In this document: one piece after another, positions 11,609-27,955 of the stretch
Layout: every line of letters begins with the position of its first letter
How positions within the stretch are numbered: the stretch's first letter is position 1
Virus record (IMG/VR): IMGVR_UViG_3300021387_000661
Span: 224,001-288,000 of that record
Reading direction: 5' to 3' (one strand)
Length of the DNA: 64,000 bases
Source: a virus
Taxonomy: Duplodnaviria > Caudoviricetes
Program-made: the position numbers and the translations under genes
Notes under the pieces: model-generated
The model's input: only the letters and a program-made list of their open reading frames with translations
The model's database searches: none
What the model was told of the DNA's origin: nothing

Positions 11609-11757
11609 TAGTGTTGAAAGTTCATTAAAATAAAGCCAATCCGCCCAGTCGGAAAAGTAAGATTATGGAAACATCCATGTGGGATGGTTTACGAATCATC
11701 AACACCGTCGATTCGGGACTTCTGAAATAAAAAAGTGGTACTTGACTTAAATTGATT

Positions 11758-11830
11758 GCAACCTTGGCGCAGTGGCTAGCGCAACTGACTTTTAATCAGT
11801 GGGTCTCGGGTTCGAATCCCGAAGGTTGCA
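11758..11830 (+). tRNA. tRNA-Lys(TTT)
   Basis: Cloverleaf; ACTGA ctTTTaa TCAGT. Confidence 0.92.
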
Positions 11831-12027
11831 CACAAAACATAAATTTATTTTGATATTTGAAAAATTTATGTTATATTTGTAATACACGTACCCAGGTTGA
11901 GATAAATTTTGCAAGAATTTATAATATAATTACTGATTCCCTGGGTTTTAAAATCCACAATGGCAGATGCGCACAGTCCCGGAGTGGTTGAGTGAGGAGG
12001 ACTTGCAATAACCTCCAAACAAAAGGA

Positions 12028-12103
12028 AGTCTTGTAGTTTAATGGTAGAATGCCTGCCTCGAAAGCAGGAGATGGATGCAGGGTTCGAATCCCCCCAAGA
12101 CAA
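12028..12103 (+). tRNA. Atypical tRNA, anticodon CGA (Ser-like)
   Basis: CCTGC ctCGAaa GCAGG; GGTTCGAATCC; first pair mismatched, odd variable region. Confidence 0.6.
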
Positions 12104-12127
12104 CAAAGTTAGTTCATTGAAAATATT

Positions 12128-12293
12128 GCCCTGGTGGTGGAATGGTAGACACGAGGGACTTAATTAGCAGAGTAAACTGTCTTAAAAAATCTTGTTTGGA
12201 AAATATAGGAACTTTGACAGGTTCAAATCCTGTTTCCAGACCAATCCCTTGGCCTGCAAGGCCTTGCGGGTTCGACTCCCGCCCGGGGCACCA
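12128..12293 (+). tRNA. tRNA-Leu(TAA) interrupted by 79-nt insert (12164-12242)
   Basis: Leu-type D and variable arms; removing the insert gives AGGGA ctTAAaa TCCCT; encoded CCA. Confidence 0.85.
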
Positions 12294-12355
12294 ACATAGT
12301 TGATTCTGACTGTTGTCAGACTTGAGGTTAATGACAGGACCTTCAACTATTAAAT

Positions 12356-12434
12356 GCGGGTGTATCGCCACTGTCTTATACACAGTCATTAACAGCGTAA
12401 TTGGTGTATGGGGGTTCAAGTCCCTCCACCCGTA
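12356..12434 (+). tRNA. D-armless tRNA-Ile(TAT) with long variable region
   Basis: GCGGGTG/CACCCGT acceptor; ACTGT ctTATac ACAGT; normal T arm. Confidence 0.7.
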
Positions 12435-12629
12435 CAAGCTTATTTGAAACAGCACTGGTACAAGGATCCATACCAGTAAAGATGAGATGGTAGCGCTGAA
12501 GTCTACGAACCTTAACAGGAAGTATCCGGATTCAAACTCCTGTCCTGTGTTACGGAACCAGTCTGGGTCACCAGGGTTTAATTGGGATGGAAACACCCAA
12601 GGAAGAGAAACCACCTTATGCTGTTATAT

Positions 12630-12701
12630 GCTTCCATAGGTCAACGGATAGACTGACTCTCCCCTAAAGAGTAGATACATGTTCAATTCATGTTGGGAGT
12701 A
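12630..12701 (+). tRNA. tRNA-Arg(CCT)
   Basis: ACTCT ccCCTaa AGAGT (C33). Confidence 0.8.
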
Positions 12702-12713
12702 CAAAACATAAAT

Positions 12714-12787
12714 GGCCCCTTAGCTCAGCGGATCAGAGCAACAGCCTTCTAAGCTGTGGGTCCTGCGTTCGAATCGCAGAGGGGTCA
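12714..12787 (+). tRNA. tRNA-Arg(TCT)
   Basis: ACAGC ctTCTaa GCTGT. Confidence 0.92.
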
Positions 12788-12807
12788 CAAAAAAAGTTTA
12801 AAAGATA

Positions 12808-12834
12808 ATGAGACAGTATAAACATAAACAGTAG
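12808..12834 (+). CDS. Leader peptide 3 (MRQYKHKQ) upstream of two tRNA-Lys(TTT)
   Basis: A-rich initiation context, two AAA codons, followed by mutually exclusive helices. Confidence 0.6.
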   Translation: MRQYKHKQ

Positions 12835-12885
12835 TTGTGTTGGTATCATCCAGAAAGATGAGACCAACCAAGTCATATATGGAAA

Positions 12886-12960
12886 GGTCTCGTGGCGCAA
12901 CTGGATGAGCGCACCTGTCTTTTAAACAGGGTGTTATGGGTTCGAGTCCCATCGGGACCA
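12886..12960 (+). tRNA. tRNA-Lys(TTT)
   Basis: CCTGT ctTTTaa ACAGG. Confidence 0.9.
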
Positions 12961-12969
12961 CAAGGTATT

Positions 12970-13042
12970 GGCCTTGTAGCTTAGATGGTAGAGCACCACC
13001 CTTTTAAGGTGGGAGTCGTGGGTTCGAGCCCCACCGGGGTCA
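12970..13042 (+). tRNA. tRNA-Lys(TTT)
   Basis: CCACC ctTTTaa GGTGG. Confidence 0.9.
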
Positions 13043-13267
13043 CAAAGATTAAAGTTTGAAATATATGGGTGGCTTGCATGCAGTTCTTGATAAGTCAGAT
13101 ATAGTACTTACTGATACTGTCTTGAACCAGAGTAAAAAGACCGGTACCTGATTGCAATAAGTTCCCACCCACCCTTTACCTGACAGGTCGAGCGTGATAT
13201 GGTCGCCTGTATTCACCAGACGTGGAGAAGAGACATTGAAACTCTGTCAGGTTTTTAATAGATTATT

Positions 13268-13624
13268 ATGGAAAAGAAACCAAAGATAAAGTGGAAGAAT
13301 TTTAAAATCTGGATCAAAGACCAGTTCAAGAGGAAGACCTGGTTCAGAAACTTTTTCATCACTGGGAATGCCTGGGGAGGGTTCAGTATCAACTCTCACA
13401 TCAACCAACATACAGGTGAACCAAAGATAACATACAATCATCTTGAATCCGCCCAGAAGGCTGCTGACAAGATGGGACAGAAACACAACACACACTTCAG
13501 TGTTTACAAGTGTCTTTACTGTGATGGTTATCATATTGGAAAGAACAGGGAGAACAAGACAGATTATGACAAGAAGGTAGTTACAAATGTTGAAGTAAAA
13601 GACAAGACTTTAATACTTAAATAA
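13268..13624 (+). CDS. Hypothetical basic protein with YKCxxCxGYHIG zinc motif
   Basis: ORF translation. Confidence 0.7.
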   Translation: MEKKPKIKWKNFKIWIKDQFKRKTWFRNFFITGNAWGGFSINSHINQHTGEPKITYNHLESAQKAADKMGQKHNTHFSVYKCLYCDGYHIGKNRENKTDYDKKVVTNVEVKDKTLILK

Positions 13625-13625
13625 G

Positions 13626-14078
13626 ATGAACACACTTGAAAATACAATTCAGAAGGATCTGGTTCAGGCAATGAAGAACCATCAGGAACACACTGTTGCA
13701 GCATTGAGGTCTGTTAAGACTGCCATTATGGAAGTGAAGACCGCTGCCAATGGTAAGAAGGATTTGGAAGATGGTGACATTGTGAAGATCATCCAGAAGT
13801 TAGTTAAGCAAAGGAAGGAGAGTATGGACATCTATTCCCAGGCAGGTAGGCATGAACTTGCAGACAATGAGCAGCAGGAGATGTTTGTGTTGATGAACTA
13901 TCTTCCAAAGATGCTCACTGAATCAGAGGTGGAGGAAATTGTTGTGAAGACGATCGCAGACCTTGGTGCAACCTCAATGAAAGATATGGGAAAGGTGATG
14001 GGATTCATCAATAAGACTTATGCTGGACAGGTGGATGGTTCTATGGTATCAAGAATTGTTAAATCTAAATTAGGATAA
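13626..14078 (+). CDS. yqeY: GatB/YqeY domain protein
   Basis: AMK..LRSVK, KLVKQRKES..Y..AGR.ELA..E, YLPK, DMGKVMG. Confidence 0.9.
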   Translation: MNTLENTIQKDLVQAMKNHQEHTVAALRSVKTAIMEVKTAANGKKDLEDGDIVKIIQKLVKQRKESMDIYSQAGRHELADNEQQEMFVLMNYLPKMLTESEVEEIVVKTIADLGATSMKDMGKVMGFINKTYAGQVDGSMVSRIVKSKLG

Positions 14079-14491
14079 TATGGCAAAGTTTGTTGTTTAT
14101 GCTCATGACAAGACTGATGTAGAATCAAATCTCATCTATGTATGTACCTGTGACACCAAAAATATGGCAAAGAGTATTACAAGTGCTATGAGGTTCAGGG
14201 ATTCCGGTGGAAGGAATGATGGGTCGGGTTTATATGATTATTATGTTAGAAAAGAAGATTGGATAGTATGAAAACCTGGATTATAGTTTTAGCAATTGTA
14301 TTTGTTGTTTTAAAGTTAGTTCAGCGGTTTCTTGCAAACTATATCAGAAATGACAGATTGGAAAGTGTAAAATACTACTTTCTTGATGGTGCAACAACAC
14401 TTGGGGTGATACATGGACTTGTTTCTTTATTTTGTATATTGGTTGGTTGTACAGATTTGATTTTATTGTTTATTTATTTGTTGAATTTAGT

Positions 14492-14983
14492 ATGAAGAAT
14501 ATAGCATTGGTTGCCCATGATGGAAGAAAGAAAGAATTGATGGAGTGGGTAAGGTATAATTGGGAAACTCTTTCAAAGCATAATTTATATGCAACTGGTA
14601 CAACTGGAAAATTGATTAGTGGTATTGAAGTGGATCTTGGATTTGGTGGTGGAGAAGGAGTTTATAGGAGACAGATTGAGTATCCTTTGAGGAGTAAAGT
14701 AACATGTCTCAAATCTGGTCCACTTGGTGGAGATCAACAGATTGGAGCAATGATTGCAGAAGGAAAGATAGATGTATTGATATTTTTCTGTGACAATCTC
14801 ATTACACAAGGTCACCAGACAGATGTGTCTGCACTTACCAGACTTGCATCACTTTATAATATTGCATTTGCAACAAACAGGACAACTGCTGATATGATTC
14901 TTACATCACCATTGTTCAATGATGAAAATTATAAGATGATTGTTCCTGATGTGATTGAGAAATATAAAAACAGACAAATTTAA
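14492..14983 (+). CDS. mgsA: Methylglyoxal synthase
   Basis: IALVAHD, ATGTTG, SGPLGGDQQIG, H.TDV.AL.R, ATN.TAD. Confidence 0.95.
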   Translation: MKNIALVAHDGRKKELMEWVRYNWETLSKHNLYATGTTGKLISGIEVDLGFGGGEGVYRRQIEYPLRSKVTCLKSGPLGGDQQIGAMIAEGKIDVLIFFCDNLITQGHQTDVSALTRLASLYNIAFATNRTTADMILTSPLFNDENYKMIVPDVIEKYKNRQI

Positions 14984-15083
14984 TAAAAACATAAATATTT
15001 TTATCTGGGATTTGGAAAATAAAATATTTTTTGTTATATTTGTATTGTTATTCAGAAAGAGTTCTTTGAATTTAGAAATATAT

Positions 15084-15420
15084 AGGTCTTGTTGATGCTT
15101 TCAGGAAAGACTGTAGGACAAGGGTTCGAGTCCCTTCAGGTCCACAAATAAACACACTTAAGTCATCGGAGTACGCCTCTGTAATGATTGAGGAATTCAC
15201 TAAACGGTGTGGAAAATCAGGTTGAGTAGGCTTCGTATCTCAACCAACTTTGGGCCTGCCTGGTTTTGACTGCTTTTGAGTATGGAGAGTGGAGAGGTCT
15301 ATTGCCAATAACTGGCAAAAACAACGGTTTCTCTGTAAACTTTGGCCCTGTCGCACAGACAGCTACTCCAAAGGCTATGGTTGCTTTCGCTTAATTGCAG
15401 GCTTGAACATAGTAGATCTT
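15084..15420 (+). ncRNA. ssrA: Circularly permuted (two-piece) tmRNA; tag frame 15314-15394
   Basis: T-arm/acceptor 3' strand (GGAC..GGGTTCGAGTCCC..CAGGTCCA, ends 15144) precedes the 5' strand GGGCCTG..TTTTGAC (15252); G3.U70; resume context ATAACT-GGC; outer ends approximate. Confidence 0.85.
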
Positions 15421-15505
15421 TCACCAGGTGGATGATCCAGAGGGTTTCTCATTCCATCTTTCCAAATAAGATGGATACTTTGAAAGTTCTTTATAATAAA
15501 TATTT

Positions 15506-15681
15506 GGCCAGGTAGCTCAGCTGGTTTAGAGCAGCGGACTGTATAAGGAGTGGTTTACCGAAACAAACCAATCTGGTATAGTTTAATGGCAAAATGCCTC
15601 GGGTCGTAGATGATGGTGGTTCGATTCCACCTACCAGATCTAATCCGCGGGTCGTGGGTTCGAGTCCCTCCCTGGCCGCCA
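15506..15681 (+). tRNA. tRNA-Asn(GTT) interrupted by 98-nt insert (15543-15640) containing a tRNA-like fold
   Basis: Removing the insert gives GCGGA ctGTTaa TCCGC; G73; CCA. Confidence 0.85.
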
Positions 15682-15683
15682 AA

Positions 15684-15763
15684 GTACATAGGATGTAAGT
15701 GCACACATATGTTGGGTTCGGGTATGATTAACCCACAGAGGTTTGAGTCCTCTCTATGTACCA
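15684..15763 (+). ncRNA. tRNA-like RNA without a canonical anticodon loop
   Basis: GTACATAG/CTATGTAC stem, T-arm AGAGG tttgagt CCTCT. Confidence 0.5.
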
Positions 15764-15800
15764 AATATAAGTTCTTTGAAAAATAAAAACTTCATACAAT

Positions 15801-16071
15801 GGAGGAGTGGGAGAGTGGTTTATTCCAGCGGTCTTGTTAATTCGAGTGCTTCCAGAGGAATCTGGAAAGTAGAATTCCCCTAATTCGGTGGAACCTTAAC
15901 AGGTAATGCTGATGGTAATACCGAGCCAATGTTTAAAGACAGTGTGTAGAGACTTTACAGGGAACATCCAGAACGGATGAAGATAAAGTCCAGACCACAA
16001 TATGAAAGTAATGTGTGTAAGGAAAACCGCCGCTCCGAAAGGGGCCGTCGGTTCGAATCCGGCCTCCTCCG
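15801..16071 (+). tRNA. tRNA-Ser(TGA) with group I intron
   Basis: Spliced loop GCGGT ctTGAaa ACCGC; long variable arm; G73. Confidence 0.88.
15836..16021 (+). mobile_element. Group I intron (IC3-like, ORF-less, 186 nt)
   Basis: 5' exon ends in U, intron ends in G; P/Q/R/S-like AATTCGGTGGAAC, AATACCGAGC, GTAGAGACT, AAGATAAAGTCC. Confidence 0.88.
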
Positions 16072-16137
16072 CTAAATATACAAATTTCAAAAAAGTTTGT
16101 TATATTTATTAAGGTTTTGTTATGTGTTTGTTTGTTT

Positions 16138-16203
16138 AAAGATTCATACCGCAACAATTAAAAGCTCAAACTGATAATTTGATTACTTTCTTTTGAATCT
16201 TGT
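16138..16203 (+). repeat. AAAGAnnCATACCGCAACA...nnTCTTGT hairpin element (second copy 18481-18546)
   Basis: Two copies with compensatory closing stems (AAGATTC/GAATCTT; AAGAACC/GGTTCTT). Confidence 0.7.
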
Positions 16204-16259
16204 TTTCTTTAACAAACATAAATTTAACCAGGCTTTTATAAACAATTAATAATTAAAGT

Positions 16260-16886
16260 ATGAAGAAATTTTTAGTATTTCTTATGAGTATTATGCTCAT
16301 GATTGGTGTGAGTGCATGTACTTGCTCCCAGCAGAAGAAAACTTCTGAACTAAAGGCTGGTGAACTGGTTGTTGAGAATGTCATCTCCCTTGACCGTCAG
16401 GCAATGAACCTTGCACATGGTGGTAATTACAGGTGGTTTGAGACTGGTGTTCAGCTCAAGAACTTCCTTGATGAGGAAAATGATGGTACCATTGATTTGG
16501 TTGTCAATGTTTTCCAGGTAGTTGAGGAGTATGATTCTACAAGTTTTGATACCTTTGTTTACAAGTATCAGCACTTCTCTGATGGTTCATTTAATGAGGA
16601 AGGTGTTCATGGTTTCTGGGTTGAAGATTACCCTCTTGAGAATGAAGCAATCAAGGTAACCTTCAAGGAAGCTTTTGAAAAGGTCCAGGAAGTTAATCTC
16701 CCTAAACCTCACACCCGTCAGGTAGTATTGAGGAAGCAGGTTGGTCCTGTTGAGGCAAATCCTCAGTGGATTTTTGGTAACCTCCATTCACAGATTTATG
16801 TTGATGCTGTGACTGGTGCAGTTTCAAAGGACAATCCTGCATTCAATGGTCTCAATCTTGGTACACCTCTTGGTGAATGGCCTTAA
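16260..16886 (+). CDS. Putative lipoprotein
   Basis: Hydrophobic signal peptide with lipobox-like VSAC. Confidence 0.7.
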   Translation: MKKFLVFLMSIMLMIGVSACTCSQQKKTSELKAGELVVENVISLDRQAMNLAHGGNYRWFETGVQLKNFLDEENDGTIDLVVNVFQVVEEYDSTSFDTFVYKYQHFSDGSFNEEGVHGFWVEDYPLENEAIKVTFKEAFEKVQEVNLPKPHTRQVVLRKQVGPVEANPQWIFGNLHSQIYVDAVTGAVSKDNPAFNGLNLGTPLGEWP

Positions 16887-17097
16887 TAGAAATCGGTGAG
16901 GTAGTTAGTTTTGCACTCTCGTCATAAATAAAATGCAGACTTGGCAATCTGGAACAGACAGATATTACTATGATGTGACAAGGAAGTGGAATACTTGCGC
17001 CACGAGATAATATCAGATGGAGGAAAGAGGAAGGGTTCTTCGTAAAAGTTGCCCAATAGGGAATGGAGGTTCGAGTCCTCCCATCATAGCCAAACAT

Positions 17098-17172
17098 TGC
17101 GGGGTAGACTGGAGAGGTTCCAGCCCGGTCTCATAAGCCGGTCCACGTGGGTTCGAATCCCACCCACCGCTA
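17098..17172 (+). tRNA. tRNA-Met(CAT), initiator-like
   Basis: CCGGT ctCATaa GCCGG; 1:72 mismatch. Confidence 0.82.
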
Positions 17173-17321
17173 CTAAATGCCAGTATAAGACAGTATATAT
17201 GTAAGTTCAACTCTTACTATTGGCGCAAAAAAATACAAAATATTTTCATAAATATTTGGATATTTCAAATTTTTTTGTTATATTTGTATTGTTAAGTTCT
17301 TTGATAAATATTGTAAAAATA

Positions 17322-18395
17322 TAAGGGTGGGTTTCTCATCCTTCCTGTATCCTTCGGGAGAAAGGAGAAAGATAACCAGTGAATACATAAGCTGGGAAAG
17401 TCAGTGTGGCGCAATCTTGCCCCTGGCGGAGGAGTTTTCCTCTCTACAAGAAAACCAAGGCAGTCAGCATATCCTGGAATGGCAGGACACTGTGAAAGGG
17501 ATATGCGGGGGTTCTTACCAAGTCTCCTTGAGTGGTAACACTGACAAGTGCTGTTTTGCTTCCAGACAAGAAGATTACCAGTCTTATGGTTTGGATGACC
17601 AAAGTTTATTGATGTCCAAAAGGAATTACCAGATTCCTCTAACAGGTGGTGCTGAGATCAGAAATGGTTGGATGTTAGAATGAGTAGAATGAGTAACACA
17701 GCGGTGTGTGAAAATAGAAAGGCGATGTATCTAACCCTCTCAAAAGGAGGCAGGATAGCAAGGGCAACCTCGTCTTTCAAATGGTAGAGTGCTAAATGAT
17801 TCATTAAAGATTATGACCAAAATGATCAATAAAAAATTATTAAGCAAGCAAAAGTGTTGCCCACACTACAGGACAATATGGTTATGCTTCTGTGATATGA
17901 AGCCTTATGGAACTCGCAAGGTGAAGTAAGAGTATTGTAAGTAGGGACAATGCAAGAGGAGGCATCCTCTTAACTCGGCAGAGGTCTTTGGCTTGAACAC
18001 ATCTATATAATGTAGTGTAGTGACTGTGGTAGTCTTGGTGGAAACACCATAAATCCATCCATATCCTCCTTACCAGTAGCGATGCTGGTGTGTATAAACT
18101 CTGGGCGACCAGGGCTTGTCCTGAAAGGGAAGAGAACAGGAGGCGATTAGGGTCAACACTCAGCCCCAATCAAACAAAAATTTATTCAGTGTCAGTAACC
18201 AGTCTGGTATGGAAGAGCGAGACTTCCCCGAATAACAAAAGTCATTTCATAAAGGTACAGAACCTCTGCGAAATAGAACCACAAGGAGGGTTTTCCAAGG
18301 CCAGGGACTTGACTTGAAACATACTTTCTTGGGTTCTAAAGGAAGTTGAAGAGTGAGTTTGCATTCAGTCTATGAGTGGTTTTATCTCTTCATCC
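17322..18395 (+). ncRNA. Large structured ncRNA (about 1.07 kb), possibly GOLLD-like
   Basis: No credible ORF, raised GC, many short hairpins, own promoter plus boxA, abuts tRNA-Asp; family assigned from size and context only. Confidence 0.5.
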
Positions 18396-18397
18396 AT

Positions 18398-18472
18398 AGT
18401 GCGTTAGTTCAGCCTGGTTAGAATGCCACACTGTCACTGTGGAGGTCACGGGTCCGAATCCCGTACGCACTG
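18398..18472 (+). tRNA. tRNA-Asp(GTC)
   Basis: CCACA ctGTCac TGTGG. Confidence 0.92.
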
Positions 18473-18706
18473 CAAATGGTAAAGAACCATACCGCAACAT
18501 TTGAATGAAATACATTTTTGGGTTATGTAGCAATTTTGGTTCTTGTTTTTCCTTGTTTAGCAAAACAAGGTGGTGGAGTTGGGTGGAAACACTGTCCTCT
18601 GTGAGTGGTAATCTCACATAAATAACTTACCATTTATTTTGAAATTTTAATTTACATAAATATATTAGAAAGTAATTTACATAAATACTTTAAAAGAATA
18701 AAAATT

Positions 18707-18829
18707 ATGATGACATTGCATACACATATGGTATTTGCTGCTATTGCAGGTAAGCCAGGTTGCTACCGTTTTTGGGAACAACTCGGACAGAAGGGTGTGT
18801 GTATGTCATCTGAAAATGAAAAACAATAA
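18707..18829 (+). CDS. Leader peptide 2 (MMTLHTHMVFAAIAGKPGCYRFWEQLGQKGVCMSSENEKQ)
   Basis: 40-codon uORF; same ATG ATG ACA TT start and tandem upstream boxes as leader 1; alternative helices with the terminator. Confidence 0.75.
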   Translation: MMTLHTHMVFAAIAGKPGCYRFWEQLGQKGVCMSSENEKQ

Positions 18830-18883
18830 GTGGAGACCATTATAGGAGAAAGGTTAAAACTTAAACAAATATAGAAGAACGAC

Positions 18884-18923
18884 ATCTCACACAAATCACA
18901 AAAAGGTTTATGTGAGATTTTTT
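18884..18923 (+). terminator. Attenuator terminator 2
   Basis: ATCTCACA...TGTGAGAT stem plus T-run, 10 nt before tRNA-Pro. Confidence 0.78.
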
Positions 18924-18932
18924 AATTTATAT

Positions 18933-19008
18933 TGGGTAGTGCGGTAGTTGGTCACCGGCTGCATTTGGGATGCAGACATTCACGCAGGTTCGAGTCCTGT
19001 CTACCCAA
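18933..19008 (+). tRNA. tRNA-Pro(TGG)
   Basis: CTGCA ttTGGga TGCAG. Confidence 0.88.
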
Positions 19009-19018
19009 CAAAGTGAAT

Positions 19019-19093
19019 GGGCTGGGTAGTGTAATCTGGAAGCACATCACTCTGGCAGAGTGAAGGATGGGGTTCAAATCCCCCCTGTGTCCA
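19019..19093 (+). tRNA. tRNA-Ala(GGC), non-canonical acceptor stem
   Basis: TCACT ctGGCag AGTGA; G3.U70. Confidence 0.7.
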
Positions 19094-19115
19094 CAAAGAT
19101 AATAAAACAAAGTTT

Positions 19116-19358
19116 ATGGAGACACTCAAACAGATTGTAAAAGGTAGTGCAAAATTGGACTGCATCAAGAGTGGTGGTGTTGCTGAATACATCATTACAT
19201 CAGAAAGCAACAACAAATATATGTTGGAAATAGATTTATCTGATAAAGTTGATTGTGGAGAGAGTGCATCATTTATGCCTTTTTATGAGAAAGCTATAAT
19301 TCTTATGCGATGGATTCGTCGTGCGATGGATAAAGGTGAATTAATTGAACTTTGTTAA
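19116..19358 (+). CDS. Hypothetical protein
   Basis: 80-aa ORF with AT-rich leader. Confidence 0.7.
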   Translation: METLKQIVKGSAKLDCIKSGGVAEYIITSESNNKYMLEIDLSDKVDCGESASFMPFYEKAIILMRWIRRAMDKGELIELC

Positions 19359-19420
19359 AAAAATACTAAAAGATTTGGAAGTTTCAAATATTTTTGTTAT
19401 CTTTGCAGTAGAAAATAAAT

Positions 19421-19495
19421 GCTGGGATATCTGCTAGTGGTCCAGGCGATGTGCCTTTCAAGCATGTGACACGGGTTCGAATCCCGTTCCCAGTA
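19421..19495 (+). tRNA. tRNA-Glu(TTC), atypical
   Basis: TGTGC ctTTCaa GCATG. Confidence 0.72.
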
Positions 19496-19654
19496 CAAAG
19501 GAGTGAAGGGAAAATCCAACCAACACTTCACATAGAGCGAAACAGAACCTGATAATGATTCCTGCTGAAGGATAAGGCAAGGTGAAGATAGGGGTTCAAT
19601 GAGGTTGAAATGATGCATGCTCAAAGTAAACAATATATAATGCTCGACAATTAT

Positions 19655-19732
19655 GGAGCTGTCGTATAGGTGGTTATTGTACAATGGACTGAAAATCCAT
19701 AGGCAGTGGTTCAACTCCACTCGGCTCCACCA
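19655..19732 (+). tRNA. tRNA-Phe(GAA)
   Basis: ATGGA ctGAAaa TCCAT; CCA. Confidence 0.85.
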
Positions 19733-19940
19733 AGGTTTGGTGTAAGGTGACTTGCATTGATGAGAGTAAATGAAGATAGGATGAATGATCAACATCCAAA
19801 AAGAAATGAAATCATCTAAAGTCAAACCAATGAAATCATTACAGATACTAGTCAATGTAGTGAGGAAATTGCAGAGGCATTTAGCACACCTGTCTATGTC
19901 ACAGGTGATTCATAAGCAAGTAAAGTGAGACCTTGACCTC

Positions 19941-20022
19941 CGGGATGTGCTGGAACTGGTAGACAGACCAGACTAAGGATCTGGTGCTGCAAGGCGTGAG
20001 GGTTCGAGTCCCTCCATCCCGA
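19941..20022 (+). tRNA. tRNA-Leu(AAG)
   Basis: CCAGA ctAAGga TCTGG; Leu-type body. Confidence 0.85.
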
Positions 20023-20182
20023 CTTGATGTAAAAAGACGTTAAACCTTGTGGGAGTTAGTCTTCTCCCTTGTGGGATAATGGTGCCGGCATCATAGTAGA
20101 TTGCCAAGGAAACTGCCCGAGTCAGCGGGGTCTGAACAGTGGGGTTCGATACCCTGGGCACCATCAAAAAAGTTCTTTGATT

Positions 20183-20255
20183 GTCTCTGTAGCTCAATTG
20201 GTAGAGCACCTGACTCTTAATCAGGGGGTTCCGAGTTCGAGCCTCGGCAGGGACA
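20183..20255 (+). tRNA. tRNA-Lys(CTT)
   Basis: CCTGA ctCTTaa TCAGG. Confidence 0.92.
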
Positions 20256-20430
20256 CAAAACAAATGCCGGTTTATCACAGTATATTGGTGACTGTGGCTG
20301 CCCTGTACAGGTGGGTTTGACTTCAAGTGAAAGTATACAGCTCGAGACAATGTATATGAGTAAAGGTCAGATATGGGTTTGGTTCGATTCCCCCGATGGC
20401 ACAAAGTTCTTTGAATTGTTATATTTAAAT

Positions 20431-20507
20431 GGGCCGGGTAGTGTAAAGGTTTAGCACGTCACACTTGCACTGTGACAGAGGGGTTCGAATCCCACCTGTG
20501 TCCACCA
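20431..20507 (+). tRNA. tRNA-Ala(TGC), non-canonical acceptor stem
   Basis: TCACA ctTGCac TGTGA; G3.U70; CCA. Confidence 0.72.
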
Positions 20508-20608
20508 CTTATTACCATATTATCTTTCAGAGAAATGGTTGACTAAAACTCGCAGACTCATCCGGTAATTGGTTGTAAAAGTGCAGTTAAAGGTTAGATG
20601 AGTATTTT

Positions 20609-20682
20609 GGGCTTGCATGTACCAAGGTTGGCGGAACTCCCTTGCAAGGAGATCGTGGAGGGTTCGATTCCCTTCGGGTCCA
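20609..20682 (+). tRNA. tRNA-Ala(TGC), atypical D region
   Basis: CTCC ctTGCaa GGAG; G3.U70. Confidence 0.7.
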
Positions 20683-21118
20683 CAAAACAGGTGAAGTTGT
20701 CATACATATAAGCCTGTTTCACAAGTTCAGAAGGTGATGCATACACACTGACTTGTCGGCATATGAGAGTGTCGGAGACACACAGAAGTGGAAACCACAT
20801 TCAGGATTGAATTGAAGTGCAAATAGATTCTTTCTGTTAGGATGAAGGTCTGCCGGACACAAAGCTCGCCAGGAAGATTACCCTGGAAATACTTGGTTCG
20901 ACTCCAAGATATGCTACAAAATCACAGAGTGCCCAGAGCATTGAAGCATTGAAGGTATGATGCTTTTGAACAAGTTTGAACCCTGTAATCGAAAGAGGGC
21001 AATGCAGCAAGCAATACTTTGTGAGATAACAACTTTTCTATGGTATCATATAGAGGTTAGTATGGCGGTCATTCAGTGCTGCAACAGAGGTTCGATTCCT
21101 CTTACCATAGCAACATTT

Positions 21119-21210
21119 GGGTAGGTAACGGCGCTGGACTGTAAATCCAGTCTGAACACAAATTGTCGTATTGGCCTTGCAGTAAGGGGGTTCGAGTCCC
21201 TCCCTACCCA
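21119..21210 (+). tRNA. D-armless tRNA-Tyr(GTA) with long variable region
   Basis: GGGTAGG/CCTACCC; CTGGA ctGTAaa TCCAG. Confidence 0.7.
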
Positions 21211-21217
21211 CACAAAT

Positions 21218-21291
21218 GCGGAGTTAGTTCAACGGTAGAATGTCAGCCTTCCAAGCTGAATATGAGGGTTCGATTCCCTTACTCCGCTCCA
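21218..21291 (+). tRNA. tRNA-Gly(TCC)
   Basis: TCAGC ctTCCaa GCTGA; U73; CCA. Confidence 0.92.
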
Positions 21292-21376
21292 AACTGTGGG
21301 TGTAGTGTAATATTATAGATTCAGCACACAGGGGATACCCTGGAATGATGGTATGAAATCCATCCACTCATAACAT

Positions 21377-21451
21377 ACCGATGTAGCTCAGTTGGTGGAG
21401 AGCGACAGATTCATATCCTGTAGGTCATTGGTTCGAACCCAATCATCGGTA
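21377..21451 (+). tRNA. tRNA with CAT anticodon (Met or Ile2)
   Basis: ACAG a-ttCATat-c CTGT. Confidence 0.8.
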
Positions 21452-21464
21452 CATATAATTAAAA

Positions 21465-21635
21465 ATGATATTATGGATAACTGTGGGGCTAAAAGAGTAT
21501 CTGTTTAATGAGTGGAAATATAATGTACACAAAAGATACTTGAAATACTTTGATGAATGGTATGACAATCTTCTGGATTCCCAGAAAGAATTTTACAAGA
21601 GTTGGATGGAAGGGTATATGAGTCCATATCATTAG
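21465..21635 (+). CDS. Small hypothetical protein (56 aa, below ORF-track cut-off)
   Basis: MILWITVGLKEYLFNEWKYN...SPYH fills the gap between tRNAs. Confidence 0.55.
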   Translation: MILWITVGLKEYLFNEWKYNVHKRYLKYFDEWYDNLLDSQKEFYKSWMEGYMSPYH

Positions 21636-21664
21636 GTCTTTGAAATGTTGATTATGAATTATAT

Positions 21665-21755
21665 AGGTCGGTGGCCGAGTGGTTGAAGGCGGCGGTCTCC
21701 AAAACCGTTAGGATATTTTGAAAAATCCTCGAGGGTTCGAATCCTTCCCGGCCTG
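21665..21755 (+). tRNA. tRNA with CCA anticodon (Trp) and long variable arm
   Basis: GCGGT ctCCAaa ACCGT; AGGAT..ATCCT variable hairpin; G73. Confidence 0.8.
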
Positions 21756-21763
21756 CTTAAGAT

Positions 21764-21835
21764 TGAGGTATGGTGTAATGGCCAGCACCTTGGATTTTGG
21801 TTCCAATAGTCCAGGTTCGAATCCTGGTACCTCAA
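21764..21835 (+). tRNA. tRNA-Gln(TTG)
   Basis: TTGGA ttTTGgt TCCAA. Confidence 0.9.
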
Positions 21836-21843
21836 CAAAAAAT

Positions 21844-21917
21844 GTCGGGTTGGCCGAGCGGTCAGGTCCTGGTCTGCAAAACCAGTTAGATTGGTTCGAC
21901 TCCAATACCCGACTCCA
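21844..21917 (+). tRNA. tRNA-Cys(GCA)
   Basis: CTGGT ctGCAaa ACCAG; U73; CCA. Confidence 0.92.
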
Positions 21918-21920
21918 TTT

Positions 21921-21992
21921 GCCCCTGTAGTGTAATGGATCGCACACAGCACTACGGATGCTTTAGAGAGGGTTCGAGTCCTTCCAGGGGTA
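21921..21992 (+). tRNA. tRNA-Arg(ACG)
   Basis: AGCA ctACGga TGCT. Confidence 0.88.
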
Positions 21993-22113
21993 CAAAATTA
22001 TAAATATAATAGATGGTCTTTGACGAAAGAATCGTATCGCAGTTGAGCTTTGTCCTCACTGACAGAAACGTAAGTCTGGGGTGTACTACAAGCCTGTGAT
22101 TGTAGTATTTTTT

Positions 22114-22185
22114 GCGGCATTCGTATAATGGTTATTATACCAGCTTGCCATGCTGGGGACGGGAGTTCGATTCTCCCATGCCGCT
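22114..22185 (+). tRNA. tRNA-Gly(GCC)
   Basis: CCAGC ttGCCat GCTGG. Confidence 0.9.
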
Positions 22186-22193
22186 CTCAATAT

Positions 22194-22270
22194 GGTGACT
22201 GTGGCCGAGTGGTTTAGGCGCAACACTGTGGATGTTGTTTACGTCAGTTCGAGTCTGACCAGTCACCCCA
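22194..22270 (+). tRNA. tRNA-His(GTG) with encoded G-1
   Basis: CAACA ctGTGga TGTTG; G-1:C73; CCA. Confidence 0.92.
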
Positions 22271-22280
22271 AAAATAAAGT

Positions 22281-22988
22281 TATGGAAAAGGTAGTAAGAT
22301 TTTTTAAACAAGATAATAAGTGGTATGCAGATATTCCAAACCACACTCTTGAAGAGAATGAGATGGTAATGGGTGCAGATATTGCTCTTGAGTATCTTGC
22401 AGAAGAGAGGAAAGAGTTACACATCACATTCACAGATGAGAATCCAGGATGGAATGTTCCTCTGGCACTCACTCTGAAAGATCATGATGATGAGGGTGGA
22501 TACTATGATGTATCAGGAATTCTCTTTATGGATTTTATGCTCACTTATGGTAAAGAGTTCATTGGAGTCAAACCACAGGTTTGGATTTGTAATGTTACAC
22601 ATGATGTATTTGGTGAACATCCAGAACACATTTACATCACAAAGATTGAATCAAAACATTAGTTATGGACAAAGATTTTAAGAAGAGGTTCTTAATGAAC
22701 CGTGATGAGACAGGTAGGTTCATTGTCAAGTCAATGAAGACTGGTAAATCCTATTATGTTGAAGCAATTGATGGTGACGAAAGGACTATCTGGGGAGATG
22801 TGGATCCAGTAACAAAAAAGTTGACAGGTAGTTATGGTGACAAGTACAAGGGAAGTATCAGACCTGAACAGTCACTTATTACCAATGAGAATGGGTTTGA
22901 CAAGATTCATACTCTTGGTCCTGGGGAATCACCATTGGATTATATTAACAGGATTGATGATGAGTACTTTGAAAAGATGAGTAAATAG
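22281..22988 (+). CDS. Two hypothetical proteins (22281-22662, 22665-22988)
   Basis: First ORF most likely starts at MEKVVRFF, after tRNA-His. Confidence 0.65.
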
Positions 22989-22996
22989 TTTTTTGG

Positions 22997-23078
22997 GGGA
23001 GAGTCGCATAGTGGCAATTGCAAGGGACTGTAAATCCCTCGCCTTCGGGCTTCAGAGGTTCGAGTCCTCTCTCTCCCA
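22997..23078 (+). tRNA. tRNA-Tyr(GTA)
   Basis: AGGGA ctGTAaa TCCCT; long variable arm. Confidence 0.92.
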
Positions 23079-23193
23079 CAGCCTATCAACCAAGTTGTTG
23101 AAAAGGGTAACGGATGCGCAGCGATTGCGGATCTTGCAAGTTTTTCGCCAGGGTTTCCTTGGTCTCTTTGAGATGAATAAATCTTGGATTTAT

Positions 23194-23275
23194 GGGGGTG
23201 TGGTGGAATGTAGACACCCCAGACTTAGGATCTGGTGCCAGTAATGGCGTGAGGGTTCGAGTCCCTCCATCCCCA
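23194..23275 (+). tRNA. tRNA-Leu(TAG)
   Basis: CCAGA ctTAGga TCTGG. Confidence 0.9.
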
Positions 23276-23410
23276 CACTGACACTACTCTATGAGTAGAT
23301 GTCTTGGTTGGTCACAATACTGTAATTGTGATAGTCCTCTGGGACTTAAAAGAGTTGCAGTGATGCAATCTGTCAAGGTCAGTCTGGAACCAGTTAATCC
23401 AGACATTTAT

Positions 23411-23493
23411 GCAGCAGTGGTGGAATGGTAGACACGCTACTTTGAGGGGGTAGTCTGGGCAACTGGGTGTGAGTTCGAGTCTCACCTGCCGCA
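23411..23493 (+). tRNA. tRNA-Leu(GAG)
   Basis: CTACT ttGAGgg GGTAG. Confidence 0.88.
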
Positions 23494-23501
23494 CAAAACA
23501 T

Positions 23502-23574
23502 AGCGGTATAGCGCAATTGATAGAGCATCAGATTCTGGCTCTGAAGGTTGGGAGTTTGAACCTCTCTACCGCTA
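23502..23574 (+). tRNA. tRNA-Gln(CTG)
   Basis: TCAGA ttCTGgc TCTGA. Confidence 0.8.
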
Positions 23575-23676
23575 CAAACAAAAAAGGGTGGGTCAACCAG
23601 GTAAAGGCAGGGTAAGTCTCTGGTTCTTCTCTGATGATGGCGCAAGTAGTCAGAGTTTCTTAAATTACCCATATAT

Positions 23677-23751
23677 GGGTGTGTAACTCAGTTGGTACAG
23701 AGTACCTGTCTGATACACAGGAAGTCGATGGTTCAAGTCCATCCACACCCA
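23677..23751 (+). tRNA. tRNA-Ile(GAT)
   Basis: CCTGT ctGATac ACAGG. Confidence 0.88.
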
Positions 23752-23760
23752 CACAAATAT

Positions 23761-23835
23761 GGTCCTGTCGTCTAGTCTGGCCAAGGACATCACCCTCTCA
23801 AGGTGGAGACCCGGGTTCAAATCCCAGTGGGACTA
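23761..23835 (+). tRNA. tRNA-Glu(CTC)
   Basis: TCACC ctCTCaa GGTGG. Confidence 0.88.
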
Positions 23836-24400
23836 CAAAAAATATTTCAAATTTATTTTGAAATTAAAAATATTTTTGTTATATTTGTATTACAAAAAAG
23901 TTCATTGACATATAATAAGTGATGACTACATAGACATAATCAATGCCACAATGTTGAGCTCTTGAGAATATGGCAGATAAAAGTCTTTAGACAAACTCAA
24001 CTATGGTCATCACTAAATTATAAGAACAGCAAGATGGGGTACTGATAATCTTCACACAAGGAGTTCTAGATTGAGGGTGTGTGAAGGAAAGGTATAAATA
24101 TTGTTAAAGAGGAATACCTGACCCCTGTCCAATTGTGGCAAGTGGAGAAATATGGATTGTCTATCTGGGGTTCTCCTGTCCTCTGACAACAGTGACTACG
24201 GAAGTCTGTTGTGTTCTTTTATTATATTGAGAATCCAAGGTGGGTGCTTTTATAGAATACTCTCTTAAAATGGATAGAGAGGAAAGAAGTGTAATATAGG
24301 TGAAGTTTCTTAGTTGTTACACATCCTGGTGATGGGGAATGTCATCACGGTGAGACTTCAAGAAGGTGACTACGGAAATCCTTTTGTTCTCAATTTCTAT

Positions 24401-24483
24401 GCCCGAGTGGGGGAATGGTAGACCCAGCAGACTCAAAATCTGCCGTCTGCAAAGACGTGCGAGTTCGACTCTCGCCTCGGGCA
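24401..24483 (+). tRNA. tRNA-Leu(CAA)
   Basis: GCAGA ctCAAaa TCTGC. Confidence 0.92.
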
Positions 24484-24849
24484 CAACAGTCCATCCAGTA
24501 TTGAGGATAAGGTAAACTTGAAAGTACAGGAAAATTCACCTTGTTCAGCGGTTGCCGATACGCAATATATAAGGACCACACAAGTAGTACATTGCAGTTG
24601 AAACATTACCCGACATAGAGACTACATAAGAAATGTGCTTTATTGGATTTGAGACTGTAAAAGAAGGGTGAAGTACAAACCCTGTTCAGTTATGATGGAA
24701 TAACCAAAGTCCAATGGCAGGGAGGGATATAATGGTGTGAAGTTGCTATTCACCATATTTAAAATTAAAAAAAGATAAAACAAATTTGGATAATTCAAAA
24801 AAAGTTGTTATCTTTGTATTGAAAGTTCATTGATATTTGTTGTTTTATA

Positions 24850-25445
24850 TTTGGAAAGTTTCTGACCTGGATTAAACCCTCATTATTGGTAGGGGAATTA
24901 AGGGACTAAACCCAACCACAAGATAATGTCCTGATGTGACAGAAGTCCTGTAGTTTTTATCTCTGTGGGTAGGTTGGCTTTGTATAATAATACCACAGCA
25001 GAAATAAGTTTCTGGTCTTAAACAATCCATACGTTTTATGATGGGGTTCGTAAACCTAACCATTCGCATCTTTTGGAAAGATGTGTTACCGTGCCGTGAA
25101 ATTCGGAGGAGTCAATTCCACAGACCAACAGAAAGAATGTACACATTGCTTACAGTTGGTCAGTGCTGTGCCCACCCAGCGAGGTTGTTATGCAGTTTAT
25201 CAACAGGGTGTGGGAAAAGTGTATGAGAGAAGACTGAATGTTCCTGGACAATGGTGTTGGAATCTGGGATAAAACAAAGAGTAGGTTGGATCAAGAAGAG
25301 AACTGGTAGGAGTTACTGTGACTTTCTGATGTTTGTCCATCAGAAAACCAGGGAAGATAATGGACACCAATATGGCAAGAGATTTTTGATAGGGATTCAC
25401 AAATCAGTGAGGTGGCCATGCACCTATGACAACACTGATTTACTT
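24850..25445 (+). ncRNA. Large structured ncRNA (about 600 nt), possibly ROOL-like
   Basis: No credible ORF; many hairpins; own promoter and boxA; abuts tRNA-Glu; family assigned from size and context only. Confidence 0.45.
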
Positions 25446-25447
25446 AT

Positions 25448-25519
25448 GGCGGGTTCGTCTATCGGTGAGGACACCAGATTTTCATTCTGGGAAGAGGAGT
25501 TCGATTCTCCTACCCGCTA
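25448..25519 (+). tRNA. tRNA-Glu(TTC)
   Basis: CCAGA ttTTCat TCTGG. Confidence 0.9.
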
Positions 25520-25639
25520 CAAATAAAAGTTGAAATGGAAGAAGAGTAACATTCCATATCCACTTAATGATTGAGTTTGTAAGAAAGTACTTTGAGACTG
25601 ATGCTTCCTACTGTACAGATTTCAACTTTTTTAGAAAAT

Positions 25640-25743
25640 TGCGGGGGAGTGAAACGGATAGGAACTCCTGAAAGGGTTGTTCAAAAATCATATCAGGCCC
25701 ATAACCTGATGATACTGGCTTCGACTGCCAGACCCGCTACCAA
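25640..25743 (+). tRNA. tRNA-Met(CAT)-like with a hairpin inserted in the D loop
   Basis: TCAGG ccCATaa CCTGA; T arm CTGGC/GCCAG; CCA. Confidence 0.62.
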
Positions 25744-25769
25744 GTATTAATTTAAAAATAGGTTTAACA

Positions 25770-25910
25770 ATGGCAGTTATTAAGACAGGTTCAACCTCAA
25801 GGAGAGAGGTGAAACACAAGAAGCGCCCTGGTATTGTCTCCAAGTGTAAGACTTCAAGGAACAAGAATTCCAAGCACTATGTGAAACCTTACAGAGGTCA
25901 GGGCCGATAA
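25770..25910 (+). CDS. Small basic protein ending KPYRGQGR (46 aa)
   Basis: MAVIKTGSTSRREVKHKKRPGIVSKCKTSRNKNSKHYVKPYRGQGR; AT-rich leader. Confidence 0.7.
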   Translation: MAVIKTGSTSRREVKHKKRPGIVSKCKTSRNKNSKHYVKPYRGQGR

Positions 25911-26052
25911 AAATACAGGTTAGAAGGCGATGGTTATTCCATAATGGTTGTGTACAGACCGGTGGAGACCTTCTGTGAAAGTCAGACGTGAAAGTAAACG
26001 AAATGAGTTCTCAGGGCAGCTGTGCCGAAGGATTATAGAAAACAGCACTTAT

Positions 26053-26128
26053 CGGGGTGTAGCTCAGTTGGTAGAGCGGGTGGTTTGGGACCATCAGGTC
26101 GCACGTTCGAGTCGTGTCACCCCGACCA
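26053..26128 (+). tRNA. tRNA-Pro(TGG)
   Basis: GGTGG ttTGGga CCATC; CCA. Confidence 0.9.
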
Positions 26129-26325
26129 AAATATGGCCTGGTGGGCAAATGGTAAAGTCACCCCTGAATGATGGGGGAGGTGTGTAATAAGGGTTACCTG
26201 ACAGTGCGGAGTAACAGTGTCGCGAACTGCCAAAGGTTGGGTACAAGAATAAGCACAGGTCTGGAGGTATTCGCGATGCCAAAGGATGAATGCGGGTTCA
26301 ACTCCCGTTCGGGGCCACAAATTTT

Positions 26326-26400
26326 GGGAGGTTAGCTCAGTTGGGTCAGAGCATCTGGTTTACACCCAGAGGGTCATAGGTTCGAATCCTATATCTCCCA
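26326..26400 (+). tRNA. tRNA-Val(TAC)
   Basis: TCTGG ttTACac CCAGA. Confidence 0.92.
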
Positions 26401-26750
26401 CAAACAACTTTGAGTATGACAGTATATGATACATGTTAAAGGCTGGAGGAAAGAAGTTGTCAGAACCTATAGTGGTGAAGCAAAGGTGAGATTCCTTTGT
26501 GGAGAGTGGTCAAAACAATACCAGACGGTAGAGATGGGGAGTTCGAGTCTCCTTAGGTTCGCAAAGAGTGCAGTGTCAATCTCCCGTTGGGGCTGGGGTG
26601 AGACCTCTTAAAATAGAGTGAAAAAATGAATTAGCTCCACCAATACAGTTATTACTAATCTGTGAAAGTAATCGTCTTGAGTTGACGGTGATGGTTGAGT
26701 TTGAGGAAACGTTCCAGGTTCGAGTCCTGCAACCATAACAAAAAATACTT

Positions 26751-26905
26751 GCCGAGGTAGCTTTAATGGTAGAGCACCTGACTTCTACAGATTTATCCAC
26801 TGTGACGGATATTGGGTAATATGGGAGAAGAAGTCAACTTTTACGTCCGAAGCGTAAGTTATCCACGTAATCAGGGGGTTGCAGGTTCGACTCCTGTCCT
26901 CGGCT
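26751..26905 (+). tRNA. tRNA-Thr(TGT; CGT possible) interrupted by 82-nt insert (26785-26866)
   Basis: Removing the insert gives CCTGA ctTGTaa TCAGG; Thr-type GCC..GGC acceptor. Confidence 0.82.
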
Positions 26906-26960
26906 CAAACAAAGATTTTAGCCTGTTAGTTAAAATCTATATAAAATAACAATCAAATTT

Positions 26961-27581: not shown

Positions 27582-27654
27582 TTAACAAACAATCAACTAA
27601 CAGGCAAAATTTTTGTTATATTTACATAAATAACCTAATGTTATTTGGAATAAT

Positions 27655-27727
27655 GGGGGATTAGCTTAGTTGGTAGAGCGCAGCCTTTGCACGGCTGAGG
27701 TCAGGGGTTCGAATCCCCTATCCTCCA
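27655..27727 (+). tRNA. tRNA-Ala(TGC), canonical
   Basis: CAGCC ttTGCac GGCTG; G3.U70. Confidence 0.93.
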
Positions 27728-27752
27728 CAAAATTGAGTTCTTTATATTCTAT

Positions 27753-27904: not shown

Positions 27905-27955
27905 CTTAATTGGATAGAAATCTTGTTAATTTCTGTCTTTTTTTTTATAACTATT

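Follow-up and report, generated by a model that had tools for sequence, protein, structure and literature searches.

A degenerate tRNA nested in a phage tRNA-Asn gene as the core of a Lak-type intron and a candidate for protein-mediated splicing

Group I introns interrupt the anticodon loops of some bacterial and phage transfer RNA (tRNA) genes (Leu-UAA, fMet, Ile, and Arg). To our knowledge, tRNA splicing in bacteria and their viruses is known only through self-splicing introns. "Enigmatic" tRNA introns, stated to be unreported in phages before, were described in the Lak megaphages of Prevotella (Devoto et al., 2019; Nat Microbiol, PMC6784885, Fig. 4 and Table S6). The tRNA-Thr(TGT) intron of these phages "itself may encode a tRNA", as "rfam found a tRNA" in it, and alignment with intron-less variants showed that true intron borders were offset from the tRNAscan prediction (Devoto et al., 2019). 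A survey of jumbo phages repeats that such introns "could encode another tRNA" (jumbo-phage survey, 2026; PMC13037316), and our literature search on nested or tRNA-like introns found nothing beyond the Lak and jumbo-phage papers. Here we analyze an insert of 98 nucleotides (nt) in the anticodon loop of a tRNA-Asn gene of the phage IMGVR_UViG_3300021387_000661 (record of 344,746 bp, estimated 94% complete). The window is a stretch of 64,000 nt (bases 224001-288000 of the record), and coordinates are window positions unless prefixed; L-numbers denote related contigs (L060 is the same contig as L002), and G000 is the whole phage record. Runs holding the phage are animal-gut metagenomes, and its host is bacterial, as the phage carries a transfer-messenger RNA (tmRNA) and a Bacteroidota-type DUF3575 protein.

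The interrupted gene occupies 15506-15681 in an array of about 40 tRNA genes at 11.7-31 kb (Rfam tRNA and ARAGORN), and it matches the Rfam tRNA model with 48.6 bits over 15506-15678 with one large insertion. A syntenic, uninterrupted tRNA-Asn(GUU) gene at L036:3541-3617 is identical at 76 of 78 positions to the joined exons, and both genes lie 5' of tRNA-Ser(UGA) and of a gene for the same 208-amino-acid protein. Because this intron-less allele aligns with the joined exons, the insert is exactly and unambiguously 15543-15640, between U35 and U36. The 5' exon (15506-15542, nt 1-35; Rfam tRNA and the L036 allele) ends in CUGU, the intron (placed by the L036 allele and by the family grammar described below) starts with AUA and ends in a single unpaired C, and the 3' exon (15641-15681, nt 36-76; Rfam tRNA, ARAGORN, and the L036 allele) starts with UAA and ends in GCCA; all are on the + strand. 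Joined without the insert, the exons give the anticodon loop CUGUUAA in a class I body with anticodon stem GCGGA/UCCGC, discriminator G, and 3' CCA. ARAGORN calls this gene "Ser(GCU)" with a 98-nt intron.

Within the intron, a 28-nt 5' segment (15543-15570, + strand; defined by fold and covariation) consists of nine single-stranded bases (AUAAGGAGU) and a hairpin, H1 (15552-15556 paired with 15565-15569, loop ACCGAAAC). The H1 stem covaries (GGTTT/AAACC, GGTTC/GAAC, GATTC/GAATC, GATT/AATC, and AGTCT/AGACT). A nested tRNA-like element follows (15571-15639, + strand; Rfam tRNA), made up of an 8-bp closing helix (15571-15578/15632-15639), a D arm (15581-15595), an anticodon-arm remnant (15597-15610), and a T arm (15615-15631). 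The last intron base, at 15640 (+ strand), is an unpaired C directly after a stack of 13 positions, and the corresponding base is C in 11/11 introns here and in 4/4 Lak introns (Table S6 of Devoto et al., 2019). Searched alone, 15572-15639 matches the full Rfam tRNA model (positions 1-71) with 44.8 bits (E 3.6e-9; gathering score 29). The nested acceptor is TCTGGTA/TACCAGA, which reaches 8 bp when the pair A15571:T15639 is added, the D arm is GTTT-AATGGCA-AAAT, and the T arm is GGTGG-TTCGATT-CCACC. The nested anticodon arm is degenerate; it measures 14 nt instead of the usual 17 and has no 7-nt loop, and the covariance model aligns three pairs and 8 nt there. Because this remnant replaces a complete anticodon arm, the element cannot decode. 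It lacks the combination of 5-bp anticodon stem, 7-nt loop, and U33 of a functional tRNA, and ARAGORN detects it, with a 6-nt loop, only when its thresholds are relaxed. The original prediction of a near-complete tRNA nested in the anticodon of tRNA-Asn is therefore confirmed, both in its borders, through the L036 allele, and in its arms, whose sequences are as it described.

In the window, the sequence closest to the nested element is that of a free-standing odd tRNA (12028-12103; 52 identities over 68 nt, against 48 for the next-best tRNA), which hints weakly that the element could have descended specifically from it. This odd tRNA (loop CUCGAAA; 46.5 bits) directly follows a conserved structured stretch of about 140 nt, the two together covering 11885-12103. 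The stretch has a long stem (ACCCAGG...CCTGGGT) and a hairpin (GGAGG...CCTCC) and matches no Rfam family. L043 and L060 have this stretch too, with compensatory changes, but there it precedes a different odd tRNA. The odd tRNA at 12028-12103 may be a 3' processing signal.

Homologous interrupted Asn genes were found on three more contigs from two other metagenome projects (L060, L037, and L049), and the insert is at the same site in all four interrupted alleles. The first 28 nt of these introns are identical to the window intron at 27/28 (L060), 22/28 (L037), and 18/28 (L049) positions, and the nested part diverges freely. The L060 version is a 92-nt class II tRNA-like element with a 7-nt loop, UUAGAAA (ARAGORN "Ser-AGA"; Rfam tRNA 45.8 bits). 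Compared with the window copy, its acceptor has changed from U1:A72 to C1:G72, its D stem from GTTT/AAAT to GTCG/AGAC, and its T stem from GGTGG/CCACC to GTTGG/CCAAC, all of which are compensatory changes. What is conserved across alleles is the acceptor/T-arm stack with its elbow and not the decoding part. The exons of the four diverged alleles are likewise intact, with compensatory changes such as acceptor GGCCAGG/CCTGGCC versus GGGTCAA/TTGGCCC.

The insert is one of a family of similar introns. In the window, all on the + strand, sister introns interrupt tRNA-Leu(UAA) between nt 36 and 37 (12164-12242) and two copies of tRNA-Thr(UGU) between nt 34 and 35 (26785-26866 and 27787-27865; ARAGORN, fold, and register). 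Further members in relatives interrupt Arg(UCU) in L051, Glu(UUC) at L050:607-680, and Met(CAU) at L038:839-941. Our counts refer to 11 introns from the window and its relatives and to four published Lak introns, the latter read by eye from Table S6. All 11 introns share one grammar: they start with NTA, continue with a 5' segment of 25-30 nt that contains a hairpin, form a closing helix of 8-9 bp, and end in C. The register is also shared, since the distance from the 7-nt T-like loop to the end of the helix is 13 positions (T-like stem plus closing helix) in 11/11, with 1-2 mismatches in three. Because this register and the single C are constant, the 3' splice site always lies 14 nt 3' of the T-like loop. 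In shuffled sequences, a helix of at least 8 bp ending one base before the insert end occurred in 1.2%. Closing-helix sequences differ in all members, which is covariation. The 5' segment has two layouts: type B (Asn, Thr, Arg, Glu, and Met) has 9 nt followed by a 5-bp hairpin with an 8-nt loop, mostly ACYGNNAC, and type A (Leu of the window) has a hairpin right after N-U-A and then an A/U-rich linker. The L050-Glu intron shares 22/28 positions of its 5' segment with the window Asn intron.

Members of the family differ in how much of a tRNA they contain. The two Thr inserts and the Leu insert keep just the closing helix and T-like arm, and the Asn insert adds a D arm and passes the tRNA covariance model; it is thus the least reduced member in the window, as had been proposed. 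The intron in L038 contains a nested tRNA-like element with a D arm, an anticodon-like arm, and a T arm. The related suggestion that the family derives from a tRNA is well supported, because the 7-nt T-like loop abuts the 3' strand of the closing helix in all members and because relatives hold fuller nested tRNAs.

The grammar was applied blind to the splice sites of other genes. ARAGORN reads the L050 gene as "Ile(UAU), intron at 39"; cutting by the grammar gives the loop UUUUCAU of tRNA-Glu(UUC), and the body has a Glu-type D arm (UCGUCUA..GG..AGGAC) that agrees with this reassignment. A grammar scan of all loci compared found one more intron, L038:839-941, which ARAGORN had missed. In silico removal of the L050 and L038 introns yields canonical tRNA-Glu(UUC) and tRNA-Met(CAU). 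Since blind cuts gave canonical genes, the splice sites are defined by the intron and not by exon context, which fits the variable insertion position (34|35, 35|36, and 36|37). Two tRNA-like genes of about 185 nt (L036:870-1055 and L038:2769-2952; ARAGORN "His, intron 104") hold a large insert of another kind, outside the grammar. In IMG/VR, a pattern search with exon-intron context gave no match, a search for the type B 5' hairpin gave 32 matches of which just the L002 contig is real (most others being one conserved coding sequence of EWFKKET type), and a search for the type A 5' segment gave mostly coding or unclear matches. Comparison of the Asn and Thr genes against GenBank phages by blastn returned short exon matches only.

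The window introns belong to the published, unexplained Lak-type kind. Like the Lak introns, the Asn insert has no open reading frame (ORF), lies in the anticodon loop of a phage tRNA, falls within a range of tens to about 120 nt (about 80-120 nt for both), has no Rfam ribozyme match, and is polymorphic in presence, an uninterrupted allele being known. The Lak Phe, Thr, Gly, and "Tyr(GTA)" introns, as read by eye, follow the same rules in 4/4 cases: N-T-A start, 13 nt from T-like loop to helix end, one C, then the exon. A tRNA-like fold within the intron is common to both sets, and the published Lak Thr intron likewise holds a nested tRNA. The 5' segment of the Lak Phe intron (TTAACAGAGTAAACTGT...) matches that of the window Leu intron (TTAGCAGAGTAAACTGT...) as TTA[A/G]CAGAGTAAACTGT, and the two are plainly homologous. 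The window Asn intron shares the architecture alone, and it adds to the Lak-type kind a second layout of the 5' segment. Given the intron grammar and a class I body with discriminator G, the intron-bearing Lak gene published as "tRNA-Tyr(GTA)" is more likely an Asn(GUU) gene split at 35|36. The phages themselves differ; the Lak phage has 540 kb and an alternative code, whereas the present phage has 345 kb and the standard code (its ORFs were called with table 11). The Lak papers give neither grammar nor mechanism, and both are proposed here from the present introns.

We consider it somewhat probable that the insert is a Lak-type mobile intron that uses a tRNA copy as its core, with decoding lost and the "top half" and elbow kept, and that it is excised by proteins and sealed by a ligase. 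That the insert is spliced at all, which nucleases cut it, and which ligase seals it are matters that we infer. The gene would be transcribed with the intron included, and the transcript would fold into a three-helix junction of the outer anticodon stem, H1, and the nested acceptor-like helix. An endonuclease would then dock on the nested T-loop and elbow, as tRNA end-processing enzymes do, and would cut after the unpaired C, 14 nt 3' of the T-like loop. An elbow-docking enzyme that cuts after the first unpaired base is suggested because the register from T-like loop to 3' splice site is constant. This cut would follow RNase Z-like logic on a stack one pair longer, comparable to the 8-bp acceptor of tRNA-His. 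Substrates of RNase Z and RNase P have a coaxial acceptor and T stem with a T-loop, and they are cut one unpaired base past the helix by RNase Z or at the helix 5' end by RNase P. The insert has the fold, and its family has the 3' splice site one unpaired C past the helix in 11/11 introns, but the stack has 13 positions and not 12, and the 5' splice site is off the 5' end of the helix. A second cut would be made where the intron starts as a single strand, on the 5' side of the conserved N-U-A. RNase E/G-type enzymes prefer U at +2, and the site would suit either such an enzyme or a phage nuclease. An RNA ligase would then seal the tRNA halves, which the outer cloverleaf would keep together; the best candidate is the phage's own Rnl-type enzyme, and the adjacent kinase and phosphoesterase could help sealing if needed. 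The excised tRNA-like RNA may receive CCA.

Genes that would suit such a route are located on the same strand, about 8-14 kb before the start of the window (G000:C1 210117-217625, corresponding to L074:3118-10626), with several unannotated ORFs between them. They encode a P-loop kinase (AAA_33, 58.9 bits; G000 210117-210623), a calcineurin-like phosphoesterase (25.1 bits against a cut-off of 27; G000 210888-211475), a putative Rnl-type RNA ligase of 478 amino acids (G000 211813-213249), and, within the same region, a CCA-adding enzyme with an HD domain (87 bits). The ligase matches the PHA02142 OB domain above cut-off (46.9 bits), and its translation contains VKVHGTS (motif I), EGFVLR, and WKLK. 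It scores 23 bits against PF09414 RNA_ligase (cut-off 27) and 28.7 bits against TIGR02306 (cut-off 151), with a match to Naegleria NgrRnl at E 4e-3. Such a gene set could heal and seal either kind of RNA end, but because sets of this type also act in counter-defence, it is permissive and not specific evidence for splicing. RtcB and an RNase Z-type metallo-beta-lactamase were not found in the phage, nor was Rnl1 (PF09511), a weak negative because its control gave no match. The proteins of unknown function in or near the tRNA array had no match in Pfam, PHROGs, or Atlas.

Non-decoding tRNA-shaped modules are known to mark cuts in longer transcripts, as in mascRNA at the 3' end of MALAT1, the t-elements of plant mitochondria, and mitochondrial tRNA punctuation. 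These signals are cut by RNase P and RNase Z, and the flanking RNAs are released and not re-joined. The insert resembles them in that its 3' splice site lies one unpaired base past an acceptor-like helix, but its flanks are tRNA anticodon-loop halves that need ligation, and its 5' splice site is 25-30 nt 5' of the nested tRNA. A proposal that RNase P and RNase Z cut the precursor fits the 3' end only partially and leaves the 5' splice site unexplained. A second parallel is the repair of PrrC-cut tRNA-Lys by T4 Pnkp and Rnl1, or fungal and plant Trl1, where the same kinds of genes (kinase, phosphoesterase, and ligase) occur and where the substrate, as it would be here, is a tRNA broken in the anticodon loop. 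The present ligase resembles the OB-fold Rnl5 type (NgrRnl/DraRnl) and not Rnl1, and a link between these genes and the introns is hypothetical. Bulge-helix-bulge introns of archaea and eukaryotes, removed by EndA/Sen, are similar in the protein-dependent excision proposed here, in the variable positions seen in archaea, and in that some archaeal introns appear mobile. They differ in that two 3-nt bulges 4 bp apart cannot be drawn at the insert junctions and no such motif is kept across members, that the phage has no EndA (PF01974; controls matched), and that the host is bacterial.

Several other arrangements at the splice sites were examined by eye and rejected, because each fails across members: a group I-like P1 helix between exon ACU and intron AGU/GGU, base pairing between the H1 loop (ACCG) and either the outer or the nested tRNA, a helix spanning both splice sites with RNase III-type stagger, and an alternative acceptor helix placing the 5' splice site at the RNase P position. 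Exonuclease trimming of the 5' segment conflicts with the conserved NUA.

Some observations weigh against a protein-spliced intron with a tRNA-derived core. The nested parts of the L037 and L049 alleles have no tRNA match at E<=10, although they still hold the closing helix and T-like hairpin. In RNA runs X15 and X18, which come from the same samples as the DNA and were available as assembled contigs only, a comparison with 11700-28000 found no listed exon-exon joint; there were many joints from tRNAs of other organisms. The usual RNase Z cut is after 12 bp plus 1 nt, and the 13 plus 1 found here would require an enzyme that recognizes the first unpaired base. After an RNase P cut at the 5' end of the nested element, the 5' exon would still carry the 28-nt segment, so RNase P and RNase Z alone cannot splice the insert. 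The distance between the 5' site and the nested tRNA varies (25-30 nt), and H1 is placed differently in the two subtypes. Identification of the ligase depends partly on scores under curated cut-offs, and large phages commonly carry RNA-repair genes for counter-defence, so that having them is not specific to splicing.

Among the alternatives, the insert may be a selfish element that is never removed; the phage would then depend on the tRNAs of its host, its own interrupted Asn, Thr, and Leu genes being dead. The assembled RNA contigs showed no spliced RNA and no endonuclease was identified, which such an element would explain, and L037, L049, and L060 each hold an additional, intact Asn gene. 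The window exons are also too near the intron-less allele (76/78) for that pair to reveal selection since insertion. We nevertheless regard this explanation as unlikely. Cloverleaves of the interrupted genes are intact in every lineage, with eleven interrupted genes from several lineages showing perfect folds and compensatory changes. According to ARAGORN, the interrupted genes are the phage's sole Asn, Thr, and Leu(UAA) tRNA genes, with no intact copy in the genome. The intron ends (NUA, 13-position register, and C) are tightly constrained across Lak and present phages, which a dead insertion would not need. A short leader ORF 5' of the first tRNA block (M-M-T-L-N-N-I-S-N-R-K) includes the codons ACA, UUA, AAU/AAC, and UCA, which are those read by the interrupted tRNAs.

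An undescribed class of self-cleaving or self-splicing RNA, with the conserved 5' segment and terminal C in a small catalytic core, is less probable still. Conservation of the NUA, the H1 loop ACYGNNAC, and the terminal C would be expected of such a core, and the end-healing enzymes of the phage would suit 2',3'-cyclic phosphate and 5'-OH ends. Rfam searches at E<=10 found no ribozyme family in the complete Thr introns or in 15560-15645, which covers the Asn intron from its nt 18 onward. Self-splicing of a known kind is excluded; a search of the same type does recognize the insert of the neighboring tRNA-Ser(UGA) as a group I intron. A common catalytic core is not expected, because the insert is small and the family shares too little sequence; the 5' segment has two layouts and the nested part, of about 45-93 nt, has almost no conserved sequence and leaves little room for one. 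Group I introns resemble the Asn insert in their anticodon-loop position and mobility, but they are typically at least 200 nt, whereas the Asn insert has 98 nt, ends in C and not G, and has neither a P3-P9 catalytic core nor an Intron_gpI match.

The group I intron of tRNA-Ser(UGA) (15801-16072) lies 160 nt downstream of the Asn intron. It is a 186-nt insert (about 15837-16022) after U34 (Rfam Intron_gpI 42.2 bits, E 1e-9, gathering score 50); L043 and L053 carry it, and L036, L037, and L060 lack it. Two unrelated intron types are thus gained and lost independently in one tRNA array. Independent presence and absence of the Asn and Ser introns among relatives is as expected of mobile introns.

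It is similarly improbable that the nested RNA is itself the functional product, with the outer tRNA mainly a processing scaffold. The product would be either a tRNA or a tRNA-like molecule with a regulatory or decoy role, for instance a partner resembling Y RNA. Such a role would suit the full class II tRNA-like element of L060, with its 7-nt loop, and the closeness of the window element to the free-standing odd tRNA, and the YrlA model is matched weakly (11.5 bits; gathering score 69). In the window, however, the anticodon arm is truncated, the reduced members have no decoding part, and the element does not qualify as a Y RNA (YrlA), no Ro60/TROVE gene having been found in the phage. The conserved outer exons would also be left unexplained, and a function of the nested RNA may coexist with splicing. 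An assembly chimera, the doubt attached to the original prediction, has nothing in its favor and is excluded by a 3030-nt Logan DNA contig (run X1, possibly the source sample of the window) that covers 12917-15945 across both junctions with one differing letter and no gaps, and by the three homologous interrupted alleles from two other projects.

Other features of the array and of the flanks of tRNA-Asn are also unusual. Directly 5' of the gene, at 15053-15485, is a permuted two-piece tmRNA (ARAGORN; below the Rfam gathering score) with a 26-residue tag ending in AMVAFA, and a relative with a near-identical tag is at L002:8923-9269. Just 3' of it, at 15684-15765, is an uncalled tRNA-like element with a 7-bp helix (TACATAG/CTATGTA), an extra hairpin, a T-like arm (AGAGG-TTTGAGT-CCTCT), and a 3' end CCA; its start is kept in L060. 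A YqeY/GatB-like protein (158 bits) is encoded within the array at 13626-14078. A tRNA with the anticodon CCA (Trp) at 21665-21755 has a class II body with a long variable arm (91 nt; 53.1 bits), which is unusual for tRNA-Trp, and a homologue is at L002:16248-16335.

Tentatively, these introns may follow a third route of their own in tRNA splicing, next to the self-splicing of group I introns and the bulge-helix-bulge/EndA system. In this route an embedded degenerate tRNA would serve as a ruler, an elbow-docking nuclease would cut 14 nt from the T-loop, a second nuclease would cut 5' of N-U-A, and a phage Rnl-type ligase would join the halves, with the intron spreading between tRNA genes of large gut and rumen phages. 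If proteins do remove these introns, they would define a new splicing pathway, in which tRNA end-processing enzymes and phage RNA ligases would be put to a new use. The locus offers an allelic series from a full nested tRNA through truncated forms to a bare minihelix, together with an uninterrupted allele. Its grammar is simple and testable and predicts splice sites to the base. It also corrects the anticodons assigned by tRNA-finding programs ("Ser-GCU" to Asn, "Ile" to Glu, and the Lak "Tyr" probably to Asn). Where these introns are ignored, phage tRNA inventories, and the conclusions on codon use and recoding drawn from them, will be miscounted.

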